A DNA stretch of 64,000 nt. Origin: Octopus vulgaris (Eukaryota). How positions within the stretch are numbered: position 1 is the first letter of the stretch; each line of letters opens with the position of its first letter. Shown here one piece after another: positions 11,981 to 64,000 of the stretch. The translations under genes were made by a program, and so were the position numbers. The stretch is taken from contig OX597822.1 in the NCBI GenBank assembly GCA_951406725.2, positions 76,446,001 through 76,510,000 on the forward strand, in the 5' to 3' direction. The notes under the pieces were generated by a model. It did not search any database. It saw only the letters and a program-made list of their open reading frames with translations, and was not told the DNA's origin.

Positions 11981-12419
11981 ATGCATGCGTGTATGTGTGT
12001 ATTGGTGAGTGTCTTCATAAAGAACTGAAGCACACCATCAACATTGAGTTGAAATGTTACTTGGAACCAGCAGAAGAATCTTTGTATCTTTCTTAATCTG
12101 GGAGATGAAAAACTGACTGCAAAGTTTATTGAGAGCAGTTTAGCTGTTTGTCAAACTGTTTGACAAACCTCCCTTGGACATACTTTTAAGTTACAGTCAG
12201 TCTTTCTCTTTAACCTATGTTTTGTATGTATGTATGTGTTTAAACCTTCGTTGTAGCTATATAAACATAGCTATTTTAATTTACTTCTCCATGAAGAAGG
12301 GTGAAAAGAATGAATAGCTTCAGTTTTCGATCCTTTTTGCAGTTTCATCAGAGGCTTTCATATCACTTGACTAAATCCAGAAAAACAAGCAGCTTATCTG
12401 TTTATATGCACAACAGCTA

Positions 12420-13033: not shown

Positions 13034-13704
13034 TATAGAGACATGCATATATACATAAAAACACATACACGCATACTTACACACATGTGTATATATATAC
13101 TCATACATGCACATATATGCATAAACATATATACACAAGTAAGTCAGATACATGGACACATTTCTACATGTGTGTATATATACATACATGCTTACACACA
13201 CACACACACATGCATATATACATATAAATACACATACACTTACATAGGCATGTATGCAAATATATAAAAATATACACACATATACAAACAAATGTATCCT
13301 GTGATACTATTGCCATTCAGAAAATGATTCCCAATTGCATTCATTAAGCTTTCAGTCATACGCATATTACATGTTGATCAATTTTTCCCACACCACATAC
13401 AATGGTGTGGGAAACACAATTAGTTGTATGTAACTACATTCATGTTTGTAACTACTCCATTCATAAAATCTTTTACATTTCCATTCAGCTCGTTTAACAA
13501 GTGTAAACCTAACATCAGCAATGTTTCAGCATTAATTTCTCTTTTGTGTTTCTGTCGGTTGCTTTTGATTGTCACTCTCCTACTATATTAACCCATTTAT
13601 TTTCATCTGTCATCTTTCAATCCGTATTAACCCAATGTACTGATGAGTTCATAAGAAACATTGTGACCATATTGTAAATATTAATTGCATCTAAGAATAG
13701 CTTT

Positions 13705-16492: not shown

Positions 16493-16885
16493 GGTGTAGG
16501 CATGGCTGTGTAGTAAGAAGTTTGTGTCCCTGCCACATGGTTCTGGGTTCAAATCCACTGCCTGGCACCTTGGGTAAGTGTCTTCTACTATAGCCTCAGG
16601 CTGATGAAAGCCTTGAGAGTAGATTTGGTCAGTGGAAATTGAAGGAAGCTCATCATCTGTGAGTGTGTTTGTGTGTTTGTGTATGTGTCAGTGTTTCTCT
16701 CCCGCCACCATTTGGCAACCAGTGTTGGTGTGTTTATGCCCCCATAACTTAATGATGAAGCAAAGAGACTGATAGAACAAGTACCAGGCTTTGAAATGCA
16801 TACTGCAGTCCATTTGGTCAACTAAAATTCTTCAAGTTGGTGCCCCAGCATGGCCTCAGTCTAATGAACGAAACAAACAAAAGAG
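16493..16885 (+). mobile_element. SINE family A, full length
   Basis: Same head and tail as 15947-16377. Confidence 0.8.
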
Positions 16886-17495: not shown

Positions 17496-17624
17496 GGGGG
17501 AGGCGTTTTCCTCATTTATTTATATAGTGTTTATGGATGTGTTTATTTATTTATATAGTGTGTATGTATGTGTTTATTTATCACAGTTTGTGAAATATGA
17601 TAAACTATATATAAATCTTTTCTA

Positions 17625-17659
17625 TAATGTTTCTCTTTCTTTTCTATTTACAGGTGAGT
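17625..17659 (+). promoter_or_regulatory. Candidate recursive splice site (AG|GT ratchet point)
   Basis: GTTTCTCTTTCTTTTCTATTTACAG|GTGAGT: polypyrimidine acceptor fused to a consensus donor. Confidence 0.45.
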
Positions 17660-18214
17660 AAAAACTGTTTTTGAATCAGTGAATGTTGAAAAAGAATTGG
17701 TGTTCTTACTTGAACAGGTTTGCCGCTCAATTTTCTAAATTTACAACAATTTTCTGTGAAGTTTTATTTTGGGTTTCGATTTTCATGGGTATTTCTGGGC
17801 TGTCTTTATATGAATATGATCCGTTTTGGGGTTCTGTTCATTAAGCAAATTGCTCATTGCATGAGGAATTAAAATACATATGAATACGAGTATTCCATTC
17901 CAAGCTAATCCAAATTCCTCTTAAAAGCCTGAAATGATGTTTTATTTGCCCATCATCAACAGCAAATGCATAAATATCAACCCAGACTGAATTGCTCTTA
18001 AGTGTATGTGTATCTGTGGTGTGCTCAGCCACTTGCATGTTAATTTGATGAGCAGCCTGTTCCATTGATCGGATCAACTGCAGCCTTCATGAGTGCCAGT
18101 TCCATTCATAAACACTCTCTCGGTACTTAGATTCTTGTGTAGTCTACAAGTGGTTTGTTGTCCAAATTCCAGTTCTTGAAATAAATGGTAAAATAACTTT
18201 CTTAAGTCATACCG

Positions 18215-34820: not shown

Positions 34821-34856
<36 letters not shown>

Positions 34857-34857
<1 letters not shown>

Positions 34858-35215
34858 TGAGTGTATTTTTACCTTGTTAACAATTAACACGGAAAAAATA
34901 AATAAATAGTTACCAGAGCAGCAAAAATCTCACAAGTAAAGGTGTTGTAACTTCTTGTTTATAAAGGTAGAAACTTCGTATTTACGTTGAATATTTTGAA
35001 TAATATATGAATAAATAAATGGTGTTTAACGCAGGTGTAATCATTTTTTTGCTAAAATGTCTTATTGACGAGTTTTGTTTTTTTCACTTTCCTGAGGAGA
35101 AGATTGCATTGTTTATACCATTTATTCTTTTGAATAGTATCAGTGGAATTTTCGAAACATGTGTCGAAAGTAAAAATATTTGATTACACCTGCGTTAAAC
35201 TCCATTTATTTATTC

Positions 35216-35221
<6 letters not shown>
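34857..35221. mobile_element. Head-to-head fold-back pLTR-like element in (TA)n
   Basis: Inverted ~40-bp repeats ~35003-35043 / ~35181-35221; homologous to 63379-63753. Confidence 0.75.
35086..35171 (+). ncRNA. Intact type I hammerhead ribozyme
   Basis: ACTTTC-CTGAGGA-[GAAGATTGCATTG/CAGTGGAATTTTC]-GAAAC-ATGT-GTC^GAAAGT; all core nucleotides present. Confidence 0.85.
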
Positions 35222-35261
<40 letters not shown>

Positions 35262-35303
35262 ATGTATGTATGTATATATGTATGTATGTATATATGTATG
35301 TAA

Positions 35304-37762: not shown

Positions 37763-40417
37763 TTTGCTTGTTTTACTTAATAGACTGTGGTCATGCTGGG
37801 GCATAATTGACTATATTCACCCCGCTGCCAAATTTCAGGCTTTCTGCCAATGCCAAACCAAGAAATCAATAATTACCATTTTCTTGATTGAACACTAAAT
37901 GACAAAATGGTTTATCAATGTATTTACTTAATTCCACGGAGATTCTTTAATAACGACTTTATTTCTATAGATGCTCCAAATCTTTCTCGACCAAATTAGT
38001 TTTGATCTACACAGTCACGATTTTTGTCATATACATATAGATAGACATATATATTTCTTTTTATATAGAGTGTGTGTAAGATATTTGAGGACAGATTTAT
38101 GTTTATATAAAAAACAGATATATAATAACAGGTAATAACTTTATAAAAAATGCTATGAGGATAAAAATAAACCTTCTTTTCTATAATGTGATTCAATAAA
38201 TCCACCTTCAGCTTCAGCAACTGCTTCTGTATGAGATCTAAATCATCTACAGCATGGCCGCAGTCCAATGATTGAAACAAGTAACAGATAAAAGACAATT
38301 TATAATTTTAATAGGAGCTCTTTATACCTGGCAGTTTTGTGTCAAAGAGCCAGGTGTAATCTCAGGTGGAGTGGAATGAAAACGATTAATAAATGTTCAT
38401 ATATAAAGTGCTTAATTATGATGAAAATGGAAATATGAGTGTTAGCCTAATTGAGTTGTAAGATCATCATCAAAGTCTTCATCTTCTGGTAACATCTTGT
38501 GGACTTGTCAAATTCTATTTGACATATGGCCTGGAATTGCAAGTGTGAGATGTGAAGTAAGACGGAGTAGCTCAACTGGAAGTTGAACCTGTACCACCAG
38601 AAATTCAGCTGACTAAAAACTTATAAACCACTCCACAACACTTCCACAGACTAAGTGAGGGAACGTCTATGTGGTTTGACCTGTTAGAAATAACAACCAA
38701 ATCTACCTAAAACGCAAGCAACATTTTACCTTCTTTAAAAATATAAAAGGATACATTGAACAATGTCATTTTAGATAATTTTTTTCTAAAACTAGATCAA
38801 ATGGTCATGGCTGGAAGGCCTTTGATTAGAGGTCTGTTGAATTAAAATTAACTTGGAGTTACAAGTTTATTAGCACATTGGGTAACCTACAGATGATTAT
38901 CAATTTAATTTTCATTTCCTTTTCATTTAACGACCACTTTTCTATGCTAGCATGCGTCAGACGAAATTTGTTGAGGCCGATTCTGTTTCTGTGACCAGAT
39001 GTCCTTCCAATTGCCAACCCTCACCTACTTCCAAACAAGGTAATATTTTCCCCATAGTCAGACATTTCTTTCACAGAAGACAGGAGCTGAACAACTTTGC
39101 TTGTTTGATGAAGATGCTGCTCATATGCAACCATTACTGAATGTTTAGACAAATGTACACATAAACACACACACATCTTATACACATGCACACACACACT
39201 CACTCACAACCACACACACACATCTATACACATGCACATATACACACAACCACGCACACACATCTTATGCATGTGTACACTCACAATGCATCTATACACA
39301 CACACATATTTACGCACAAGCATGCACAGACACACACATACACACATGCATATATATATATACACACACATACACACCCTATACACATTCACACACACAC
39401 ACCTAATAAACATGCTCATATGTATATATACACATGCACACACACCATATGCATACACAACCACGCACCCACACATGCATACACACACACTCACATAGAA
39501 CTCGTTCCAAAACCTCTATCAGAAGAGACAATGAAAAACACCACCCCAACCGTCCTCCTCTTCCTCCCCCTCCCCCCGTCCTCCTCTCCGTGCACCCATC
39601 CTCGTAGCTTTACATTAGACATTTATCCAAGATATTGTCAGATTTGCTCCATGGATTCTGAATGATGCAAAAACTAAAGACATTTTCAGGGTGGGGTTAG
39701 GGAGGAAGGAGAGGAAAGAGAAAGGAGGCGGCGGTGGGGTGGGGTGAGGAGTAGGGGTTTCTGTTTACTGTGACTGAGATTCATGGAATTTTACGAGGGT
39801 GTATTGTGGGGAGTAAGAGATTTTGGTGATGGGGGGGGGGGGGGAAGCAGGAGGCAGACGGAGAGGCTGGCGTATTGCGAACACGACGAGGCTGGTGGGA
39901 TTCTAGCAAGGATCTTGTAGGGTGCGGAATTGTATGTGTGTAAGAATGGGAGAGCAGCGATCATGTGAAGATTGTAGCCATAATTGAATGAAAATAATCT
40001 AGCTAGCCATCTATCTATCAATCCATCCACATACCTATTCATCTCTCTATCTATCTCTCTGCCTATCTATCTATCTACCTATCTATCTATTTCTATATAC
40101 ATATATAATGTATGCCTCTCTCTCTCTCTCTATATATATATGTATATATATATATATATATATATACAAACACACACATACATATATGTATATATATATA
40201 ATATATCTGAAGACTAGTGTTATTGAAATTACAAAGATATAATCTAATAAATGTGAAAATCACACTTGTCATCTTTGATGGAATGTTTGGCCAGATTTGG
40301 TTGAAGTTTCCTTATTATTTATAGCATGAAGATGAAGAAAATTCTATGAGCATAAACAACTCATCGATATATACATAAATATATGTATTTATATATGTAT
40401 GTGTATATGTATGTATG

Positions 40418-42764: not shown

Positions 42765-43177
42765 TTCACCATGATAGATCCCTAGCCACTAATTCTTTTT
42801 CTTTTTCCTCTCCCTTTTTATTTCTGTGTTCCTTTCTGCTGAAGAGTGCAGGCTCGAAATGTAAAAGACTTTCTCACTTCCCAAGCATTAAACTAATACA
42901 TCTGTTTGTTGTTTACACATCCATCTTCGTCTTTTATTTTTGTAAATTCTCACGATATATAATGTATATATTACAGAGATTTCACCATGATAGATCGCTA
43001 GCCACTAAACCTTTTTCTATTTTCTCTCCCTGTTTATTTCTGTGTTTCTTTCTGCAGAAGAGCATAGGCTCGAAACATGAAAAGCTTTCTCACTTCCCGA
43101 GCATTAAACTAATACATCTGTTTGTTGTTTACATATCCATCTTCATCTTTTGTCTTTTTGTAAATTCTCACTATATG
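42765..43177 (+). mobile_element. Tandem 216-bp units each with a minimal hammerhead-like motif
   Basis: Units start at 42765 and 42981; CTTT-CTGCTGA-A-GAGT GCAG GCTC-GAAATGTA-AAAG (42832-42867) and CTTT-CTGCAGA-A-GAGC ATAG GCTC-GAAACATG-AAAAG (43048-43084). Confidence 0.6.
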
Positions 43178-52666: not shown

Positions 52667-53215
52667 CTTCCTGTTCTTACATCATCATGAGACTGATTTC
52701 AATGCCTCCAGTTCAGGGTGACACATGCAGTATCCAGATAGTTGCAGCTGTTTTTGCCTGATTTTCTCACTAACTTTCAACAGGTCTCTATAAAGGAATT
52801 CAATTGTCATATATTGCCACAATTTCACATTTAAGACCACCATAATAGATGAAAAAAATTCATCAGCATCAGCTTTGTTTTAAGGTTTTCATGCAATCTG
52901 AACGCAGGCCAGTATGGACAACAGACGTTAAATAATTATGATGATGATGATGATGAGTGAATACCTTGAAGCAAATAAGATGCTGAGGATATATTTTATC
53001 AGTTATCCTTTACTTGTTTCAGTCATCAGACTGCGGCCATACTGGGGCACCACCTTGAAAGGTTTAGTTGCACAAATCAATTCCAATACTTAGCATTTAA
53101 AAAAAAATCTTGGTGCATGTTCTGTCAGTCTCTTTTTGCCAAACAGCTAAGTTACTGCAGTGGTGGTGGAGAAAAACACACACACACATATATATATACA
53201 TACATACGTACATTG

Positions 53216-53764: not shown

Positions 53765-54440
53765 GCCACTCATAATATAAAAGAGTACAGGTGGAATGTC
53801 CCAGTGAAGACCTCAGTAAAATGTATGCACAACAGACCTGATTTTAAAATTTGAGATAGAGTAGAGAAACTGTGTACAGTTGTAGAAATTAGCTGTCCAG
53901 CAGATGTTAACATAAAGCTGAAGATCAGTGAAAAAGAGAACACCTATGTTAAACTATTGAGAAATTTGAAGTTACTCTATCCAGATCACAACTTTCGGTT
54001 TATACCTGTAATTATTGGGGACCTGGGATATGTAACATACTAAATAACAATCTTGAGAAATCAGGCTTCTCAAAACCATAAAGGAGAAAGCTAATTCGAA
54101 GACTACAGATAAAATCCATCACTGGAACTGTAAAATTTTGTGAAACTTTCCAGTTTATCATTTAAATATATATGAGTGTGTCAAGATATGCAACTATATG
54201 CATGAGAATACATACATAAAACATACAAATCTGCATATACATACACACACACACATACATACACACACACATACATACATACACACACACATATATACAT
54301 ACATACATATATACATACACACATACAAAAATTCCCTGTTGCTGATGTTGAAATTCCAATGAAGGAGTCTTGGATCTAGGTTAGAAACCGGCTCTTTCTC
54401 TGTTGGCAAGAAATCTTGAAATAAAACTGAACAATGACAT
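53765..54440 (+). mobile_element. R4/Dong-like non-LTR retrotransposon 3' end (restriction-like endonuclease domain)
   Basis: WNVPVKTSVKCMHNRPDFKI*DRVEKLCTVVEISCPADVNIKLKISEKENTY..LYP..FIPVIIGDLG: RPD..E..K..Y motif of RLE; followed by 3' UTR. Confidence 0.85.
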
Positions 54441-62895: not shown

Positions 62896-62913
62896 ATATA
62901 TAAATATATATAT

Positions 62914-63753
62914 AAATTAAGAAATGGAGTCAAACACAAGTGTTATTCAAATCATTTATTTCCAACATATGTTTCAAAGAAAGCATTGAGATTATTCTGG
63001 AGGGAATAAAAATGATGTAAAACAACACAATCATCTTCTCGGGGAAAGAAAGAGAAGCAAAGCACATCAATAAGCCATTTTAATCGAATGTGATTTTTGG
63101 CTGTATGATGAAGGGGAATTCTAGCAAGTTATTTAACGTCAAAGGTAATTTAGAGAAAGAAAGAAATTAAAAGAAAATTAAGAGTGGAAAACATAGTGTG
63201 ATAGATGAATTGGAATAAAGTTTAAAAGCATGGAAATAGATATATGTATATATATGTAAATGAAATGTAAGGAGACAGTTAAAGGTCAAATTATATAGAT
63301 TGGTAGAAATTACTTATAGAAACTAAAGGTGTGTTTTTGCCAATGCTTACAATGATAAACACTTTTAAACGTGTTATAAAATAAGTTGCCAGAGTTCCCC
63401 TTCATCATATAGGTGGTAATCACATTTGGTTAAAATGGCTTATTGATGTGTTTTGTTTCTCCTTTTAACTGACGAGATGATTGCATTGTTTTATATCATT
63501 TTCATTCCCTTCAGAATAATCTCAATGCTTTCTTCGAAACATATGTTGGAAGTATAAATGATTTTAATAACACCTGCATTTGACTCCATTTTTTAATTTA
63601 TCCAGGTTATACAAAAACATTTCGCTTAACCCCTGGAATTTCTACCTTTATAAGTACGCTATAATATTCTTGGCACTTCTGTGTATTTTTTTCTACCCTG
63701 GTAACTATTTATTTATTTTTTCCATGTTATTTTTACACATTGAAAAAATACAC
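62914..63753. mobile_element. Head-to-head pLTR-like element with two hammerhead copies
   Basis: ~220-bp inverted arms 62914-63133 / 63379-63599; cores CTGACGA..GAAAC-ATAT-GTT (63469-63547, +) and CCGAGAA..GAAAC-ATAT-GTT (62959-63047, -); same family as 34857-35221. Confidence 0.75.
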
Positions 63754-64000
63754 ATACATTTATATATGTGTGTGTACATACATACACACCCATAATATTT
63801 ATGCTATCTTCTCTTATAACATGCAGGTAGCTTAATCCAACTATCAAGAATATTGTTCAGGGAAATGCATTTCTGAGGAGAGCTCTTGGTAGCTGAAGCA
63901 ATCTACACGTTATAAGATAGAATTATGTATTCTGTTCTGTTTTTAACATTTGGTAGTTCTTTTTAAATTGTCAGTATCTTAGCCAAACAATTAGTTTATC

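Follow-up and report, generated by a model that had tools for sequence, protein, structure and literature searches.

A hammerhead ribozyme motif in Octopus vulgaris, probably the tail of a young, 5'-truncated Penelope-like element of the Hydra clade

The window analysed here, a stretch of 64,000 nucleotides of Octopus vulgaris DNA, contains a type I hammerhead motif of 86 nt with an intact core (35086-35171, + strand). It is very probably the 3' end of a young, 5'-truncated Penelope-like retroelement (PLE) of the Hydra clade inserted in a (TA)n microsatellite, predicted to cut only as a complex of two copies or with the help of a protein, and likely near-silent at this locus. The coordinates of the motif and of the insertion are presented in Table 1.

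Table 1. Hammerhead motif and surrounding insertion (positions in the window).
Feature	Position	Strand	Remarks
Type I hammerhead motif, in element 3' UTR/pLTR	35086..35171	+	Sequence, fold, descriptor, RNAalifold, covariation
Stem I 5' strand ACUUUC	35086..35091	+	Partner GAAAGU at 35166-35171, 6 bp
Core C3-A9, CUGAGGA	35092..35098	+	N7 = G; relatives U, A or C
Stem II arm, 55 nt	35099..35153	+	Basal stem of 13 positions, then internal loops and an AUUC(C)/(G)GAAU hairpin at the apex
GAA (G12-A14), helix III strand and C17	35154..35165	+	8-nt self-complementary strand ACAUGUGU at 35157-64; C17 at 35165
Forward arm, 5'-truncated 3' end of Penelope-like element	35040..35215	+	98.4% identical to L013 and L016
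Inverted arm, last ~36 nt of 3' UTR and ~147-nt tail (5' UTR start)	34856..35043	-	
40-bp inverted repeat	35004..35220	.	35004-35043 pairs with 35181-35220 except at one mismatch
(TA)n target microsatellite, left side	34822..34855	.	Right side 35216-35237

As in type I hammerheads, the core CUGANGA ... GAAA ... UH surrounds a three-way junction, and stem I is the one left open. GAAAC occupies 35154-58, the loop AUGU 35159-62 and the GUC triplet 35163-65, and the cut site is predicted at 35165/35166. The base of stem II (35099-35111 with 35141-35153) comprises 13 positions including one G.G mismatch, and the arm is closed by G10.1-C11.1. An earlier note, made from the sequence alone, had described a 6-bp stem I, CUGAGGA, GAAAC and GUC in an intact core, all of which were borne out by the sequence and by a descriptor search; its 13-bp stem II with one mismatch and inner pairing was also recovered, the inner pairing being a further apical hairpin, and its cleavage position after 35165 agrees with our prediction. 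The centroid fold of 35080-35180 contained stems I and II, with a z of only -1.67. This hammerhead was the single match to the type I descriptor in the window. In block-wise dinucleotide shuffles of the window, none of 200 matched when stems of at least 6 + 6 were required, and 17 of 200 matched at lax settings. Rfam reported nothing in the whole window at gathering score, and within 34900-35300 none of its hammerhead families matched even at E<=10, a miss that is probably caused by the long stem II. A short-gap pattern, CTGANGAN{4,34}GAAA, had 9 matches in the window for 2.7 expected, none being the 35086-35171 motif. Short-gap CUGANGA...GAAA matches were located at 12325-12351, 13640-13658, 16601-16638, 40207-40228, 42839-42859, 52823-52866 and 53918-53933; as type I hammerheads they were rejected, as 0/9 passed the fuller type I descriptor. 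Hammerhead-like matches with a short stem II were also seen in other repeat families, close to copies of the element described below: L049 (-) 235, L056 (+) 1175, L062 (+) 4733, L064 (-) 3721 and L067 (-) 4812.

The insertion carrying the motif extends from 34856 to 35215 (360 nt) within a (TA)n run and is 5'-truncated, with an inverted arm followed by a forward arm, the two overlapping by 4 nt (ATCA, 35040-43). It holds one hammerhead and lacks the element ORF, and the 40-bp inverted repeat encloses the hammerhead in a + strand transcript. We rejected a reading of this repeat as a MITE or DNA transposon, since its left arm runs into the element tail and most copies have no such repeat. A non-LTR retrozyme was also discarded: there is one hammerhead in the insertion, the relatives run on into an ORF, and short non-coding tandem units are absent. 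Another insertion of this PLE lineage, tandem/inverted but older and degraded, was observed at 62900-63770 of the window. It includes the nearest same-strand relative of the motif (63469-63553, +), with CUGACGA, an AUAU loop, GUU and a broken stem I, as well as a second hammerhead remnant on the - strand (~62918-63082).

To what extent the locus stands out was judged from its copies. In a DNA search of the genome, all 40 scored of 1,916 candidates matched, the main ones at 93-100% identity. A 20-nt 3' core had 3,673 exact matches in the genome versus 0 for its reversed control; among the first 30 of these matches, 23 have both halves of the hammerhead and 12 pass a strict intact test. The identical 86 nt were present in 19 of the 29 closest loci, which had been selected for similarity. 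At 98.4% identity, the 15 core positions would remain unchanged by chance in ~79% of cases. Hence the "fully intact" core needs no selection, because a copy this young has a ~79% chance of keeping it, and nothing supports a special status for this copy: it is one among thousands of retroelement copies. In one other copy (G000:C16:4881298-4881332), the whole hammerhead between the stem I strands was apparently deleted.

By its sequence, the motif-bearing element is very probably a young Penelope-like retroelement of the Hydra clade, 5'-truncated at this locus. Longer copies extend upstream into an ORF, with an uninterrupted frame of 775 aa at three loci (L044-L046). An AlphaFold model of the ORF, made from a 13-sequence alignment, had a pLDDT of 79.7, and the top four Foldseek matches were telomerase RT (TERT) structures, which supports the RT only; on this model, the ORF encodes a telomerase-like RT. 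Pfam and PDB sequence-profile searches of the ORF gave no informative match. The ORF contains the motifs SDKT, FDIPMGSSDSAQIADL, YRDD and, toward the C-terminus, SIYQC...FYIG, CLLCNSE and CKH, which agree by eye with the published Hydra description and alignment (PMC8557442). Since SIYQC...FYIG and the motifs downstream of it align by eye with the published Hydra EN (PMC8557442), comparison with that alignment points to a putative GIY-YIG-type domain at the C-terminus. A Naiad assignment was rejected, as the endonuclease-type domain is C-terminal in this element.

Several features that distinguish the Hydra clade were found. The change of DKG to DKT (SDKT) is present in families B and C, as are CLLCNSE ... 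N ... CKH and CNLCVSE ... N ... CPH. Insertion in (TA)n and a length below 3 kb were observed as well (the L044 unit is ~2.86 kb; family C has a period of 3,624 bp), together with the partial tandem pLTRs, inverted 5'-truncated copies and tail of EN+ Penelope-like elements, an anatomy typical of PLEs (Craig et al., 2021; PMC8557442). RWK reads RWL in this lineage, with RW conserved in 13/13 aligned proteins. The CxCX5C linker, present in published Hydra elements (PMC8557442), is absent from the family A, B and C ORFs; it was found in 11 of 12 aligned database homologues, the twelfth being a partial protein. In L044 (2796-5120) and L121 (5164-7848, -), all CxCX5C cysteines are lost, yet insertion is still in (TA)n. 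Such a loss is hard to square with the role suggested for this linker in guiding insertion to microsatellites. Only one homologue of the element protein was named in NCBI, from Argonauta hians.

The structure is conserved well beyond the immediate family. The same hammerhead layout was found behind ORFs in copies with 51-87% protein identity (over matched stretches), and core nucleotides were kept between families with proteins only 58% identical. We aligned 35 copies, chosen for diversity out of 91 distinct complete ones, and RNAalifold recovered both stem I and stem II while leaving the core unpaired. The named structure was paired in 89.1% of 907 cells as compared with 37-59% for slid controls, and the covariation score exceeded all 500 shuffles, although this is not a probability given that the rows are related. 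Two-sided changes were seen at 8 of 26 pairs in stems I and II, a count inflated by the related rows. In stem I, a U-A/C-G swap at pair 14-96 occurred in 9/35 copies and the C1.1-G pair was kept in 35/35. Core position 7 was G, A, U or C among relatives, as one would anticipate of a hammerhead core. Stem II plus loop measured 53-59 nt in each of the 23 complete copies out of 30 sampled.

A subfamily and a separate, related family deserve description. The subfamily (L044-L047, L100-L108) has uninterrupted ORFs and a hammerhead with U4C, mostly also C11.1U, and GUA; its 3' core had 248 exact matches in the genome. U4C occurred alone in the intermediates L038, L042 and L043, suggesting a stepwise change. 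The family with an ACGU loop (family C; L121, G000:C1:119513500-119523400, and L098 1124-1229), is the youngest family seen and was probably active recently: a 171-nt copy was 100% identical in 40/40 scored of 906 candidates. It has full-length units in tandem with a 3,624-bp period and an 895-aa ORF with long low-complexity inserts, 58% identical over the RT region. Its hammerhead combines a canonical core, a perfect ACACGUGU palindrome and a GUA site with a bulged stem I.

The key to how the motif might work is helix III. In the monomer, it amounts to 2 bp with a predicted pairing probability of 0.03-0.04, short of a stable helix. The stretch from A15.1 to U16.1 is an 8-mer that occurs in three versions, all of them self-complementary, and an 8-bp helix III can form only between two copies, with pairing energies of -7.0 kcal/mol for ACAUAUGU, -6.0 for the window version ACAUGUGU (two central G.U pairs) and -10.3 for ACACGUGU. 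The earlier note had pointed to a palindromic ACAUGU; a dimer option does exist, but that 6-mer is the wrong strand, as its pairing shifts the register so that A15.1 loses its pairing with U16.1, and the productive strand is the 8-mer at 35157-64. When the first 100 pattern matches (out of 1,149) were counted, the loop was AUGU in 77, AUAU in 16, ACGU in 2 and other in 5. Over the 35 aligned rows, the centre pair of the 8-mer was U-A in 20, U-G in 13, C-G in 1 and unpaired in 1, the C-G form being ACACGUGU from the family with a protein only 58% identical. The 8-bp self-complementary strand is kept across subfamilies despite the change of loop, which is the PLE dimer design. Palindromic helix III/loop III has been described in repeat-type hammerheads by Perreault et al. 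(PMC3088659), and the minimal hammerheads of metazoan PLEs did not cleave as monomers and did so only to a low degree as dimers (PMC4209133).

Folding predictions were more nuanced. The unconstrained two-strand MFE was the strand-swapped active double hammerhead in 2 of 4 variants tested. For the window version, the active dimer lay 2.2 kcal/mol above the best dimer, which used the off-register ACAUGU pairing; for family C (ACGU), the best predicted dimer kept the 8-bp helix and lost stem I, with a gap of 4.0 kcal/mol. As an isolated 86-mer, the active monomer fold was ~0.7-1.3 kcal/mol above the MFE, and the long stem II could make tertiary contacts that stabilise this fold. When 35044-35219 or wider flanks were included, the hammerhead fold was predicted at 3.9-6.9 kcal/mol above the MFE and the probability of the stem I closing pair was at most 0.002. 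Since ordinary element contexts gave gaps of 4.5-6.1 kcal/mol, this penalty is mostly intrinsic to the element.

These observations suggest how the element may use its hammerhead. In a full-length element, two hammerheads in a tandem precursor RNA would swap strands and form the 8-bp helix III, and such a double hammerhead would cleave after GUC or GUA in a regulated and probably slow manner. The RT-endonuclease, on nicking (TA)n, would mainly copy RNA that is still uncut; this would account for copy ends ~50 or ~200 nt past the cut and for scattered truncation points. The window copy is without the ORF, and its insertion offers no partner hammerhead. We looked at 5' junctions around the cut, classified by eye: ~16 true junctions of 35 matches started in 35166-35177, as compared with 31 of 34 in 35154-35164, the two junction windows having used different anchors; a third control window was left out because it was dominated by a 1-nt indel subfamily. 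Only 2 junctions were exactly at 35166, both with microhomology, and no excess of 5' truncation at this cut site was found among the family junctions examined. As a counter-example, the inverted arm of the related copy L002 begins exactly at the cut site. The hammerhead of an Anolis PLE cut only with protein, its catalytic mutants still inserted in vitro, and no RNA-seq reads were reported to begin or end at the hammerhead site (PMC11167929). That junctions are not piled up at the cut agrees with these findings. Family-level contigs from runs X1 and X10 read across the predicted cut site, extending at least 31 letters to either side; they may be DNA, are not copy-specific and carry no end information.

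Whether catalysis matters to the element at all can be questioned. The motif could be kept mainly as a structured protein-binding or packaging signal for which catalysis is dispensable, a reading that we consider unlikely. The young U4C subfamily, usually with C11.1U, has uninterrupted ORFs and its 248 exact 3'-core matches, while U4C is reported to lower in vitro activity considerably (PMC3088659), and the insertion of catalytic mutants of the Anolis PLE in vitro (PMC11167929) points the same way. However, the youngest family has a canonical core and a perfect palindrome, and the core nucleotides are kept across proteins only 58% identical. A signal function is compatible with a hammerhead at the end of a PLE that cuts as a two-copy or protein-aided complex, and differs only in the purpose given to the motif.

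The earlier note had instead raised the possibility that, if the window is a + strand intron, this copy cleaves the pre-mRNA co-transcriptionally, considered here as cleavage by the monomer. The intact core and stems that are strong in isolation speak for it, and so does the sequence at 17653, where a strong acceptor is followed directly by GTGAGT (AG|GTGAGT), as a recursive splice site might be. A second copy of this segment lies on the same strand 86 kb upstream: 17611-17740 and G000:C9:76377681-76377978 (L142) share ~125 nt that are almost identical, with flanks near 80%, and no third copy was among 40 scored matches. The site at 17653 to which the earlier note points is real and, with its second copy, compatible with a possible long intron on the + strand, but a host exon was not identified over 254 kb. 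All 55 splice-flanked candidates over 254 kb were repeat-like or noise, and Pfam searches of 146 of the 235 unmasked frames over the same 254 kb yielded no host exon and 3 sub-threshold matches only. Contigs of four runs, presumed to be RNA, did not cover 17540-17971, which proves nothing. Cleavage of a host pre-mRNA is not supported: the monomer helix III (0.03-0.04) is weak, the flanks disfavour the fold down to the stem I closing pair (<=0.002), the 40-bp duplex would clamp the cut products together, and the metazoan PLE hammerheads tested in two studies had no monomer activity (PMC4209133, PMC11167929). Altogether, intronic self-cleavage appears very improbable. A tandem array with a ~617-nt period and units more than 99% identical was also observed (L139 4973-10000 and L138 1-1083; G000:C9 ~76.361-76.367 Mb).

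Equally doubtful is that the stub acts in trans, its enzyme half cutting the substrate strand of another copy, so that scattered stubs would cut each other's host RNAs. The 3' core is common to thousands of copies, and the enzyme half 35086-35164 forms a full 14-bp trans hammerhead with the same-strand GUU site at 63539-63553 (-25.4 kcal/mol, 1.7 above the best cofold, for isolated fragments). On the other hand, its own stem I and local alternative folds compete, and the partner is 28 kb away from an enzyme half whose pairing was computed on isolated fragments. A bolder version, to which we give just as little credence, would have the ~55-nt stem II arm serve as a docking site, for the element protein or a tertiary contact, that switches on a dormant hammerhead, with dispersed stubs being genome-wide trans half-ribozymes that cut host long-intron RNAs, for example at GUU 63545-63547; the genome-wide scale follows from the thousands of stubs that have in common a self-complementary strand for helix III and stem I strands able to pair across copies.

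The single locus matters little, being the kind of remnant one would predict for a known retroelement group. The lineage is a convenient natural test set for the role of PLE hammerheads. Its palindrome exists in three versions (AUAU, AUGU, ACGU), one of its subfamilies has spread in spite of U4C/C11.1U, and one family consists of 100%-identical copies and includes full-length units in tandem. Because of the long stem II, thousands of hammerheads in such genomes are missed by Rfam and by short-stem descriptors. The present long-stem-II family did not appear in the titles and abstracts of the literature searched; Repbase, Dfam and preprint supplements were outside this search, so the family may already be catalogued.

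Hammerheads at the 3' end of Hydra-clade elements, including the Octopus family Hydra-1_Obim, have been published and were found by descriptor (PMC8557442). The element described here resembles that clade in its single ORF with an RT followed by a putative GIY-YIG-type domain, DKT, YRDD, CxxC and CxH around conserved E and N, a length of ~2.9 kb, insertion in (TA)n, copies that are in partial tandem or inverted and 5'-truncated and bear a tail, and a type I hammerhead on the sense strand of the 3' UTR whose helix III is short and self-complementary (PMC8557442). It differs in a stem II plus loop of 53-59 nt versus 10-24 nt in the 26 Hydra rows of File S2, a helix III strand of 8 nt versus 9-10, the missing CxCX5C linker, RWL in place of RWK, and a tail of ~150 nt, where PLE tails are described as 30-40 bp long; Hydra-1_Obim is also listed with a different hammerhead sequence (PMC8557442). 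Like the minimal hammerheads of metazoan PLEs (Cervera and de la Pena, 2014; PMC4209133), those studied here lie in pLTRs, for the most part as the only motif of a truncated copy, with palindromic 15.2-16.2/loop 3, G10.1-C11.1 and a dimer design, whereas they have no extra nucleotide between A9 and G10.1 and a helix II much longer than the 7-8 bp described there. Poseidon PAc of Anolis (Frangieh et al., 2024; PMC11167929) belongs to a different PLE clade; it shares ends downstream of the hammerhead, internal start points that give a tail and AT-rich targets, but its hammerhead overlaps the ORF start, whereas here, in tandem copies, ~250 nt separate its end from the ATG downstream. Finally, metazoan non-LTR retrozymes (PMC7229834; 10.64898/2026.07.22.740005) have similar dimer-type type I hammerheads related to PLE pLTRs, and are short non-coding head-to-tail repeats, whereas the window copy is the single truncated end of an ORF-bearing element.
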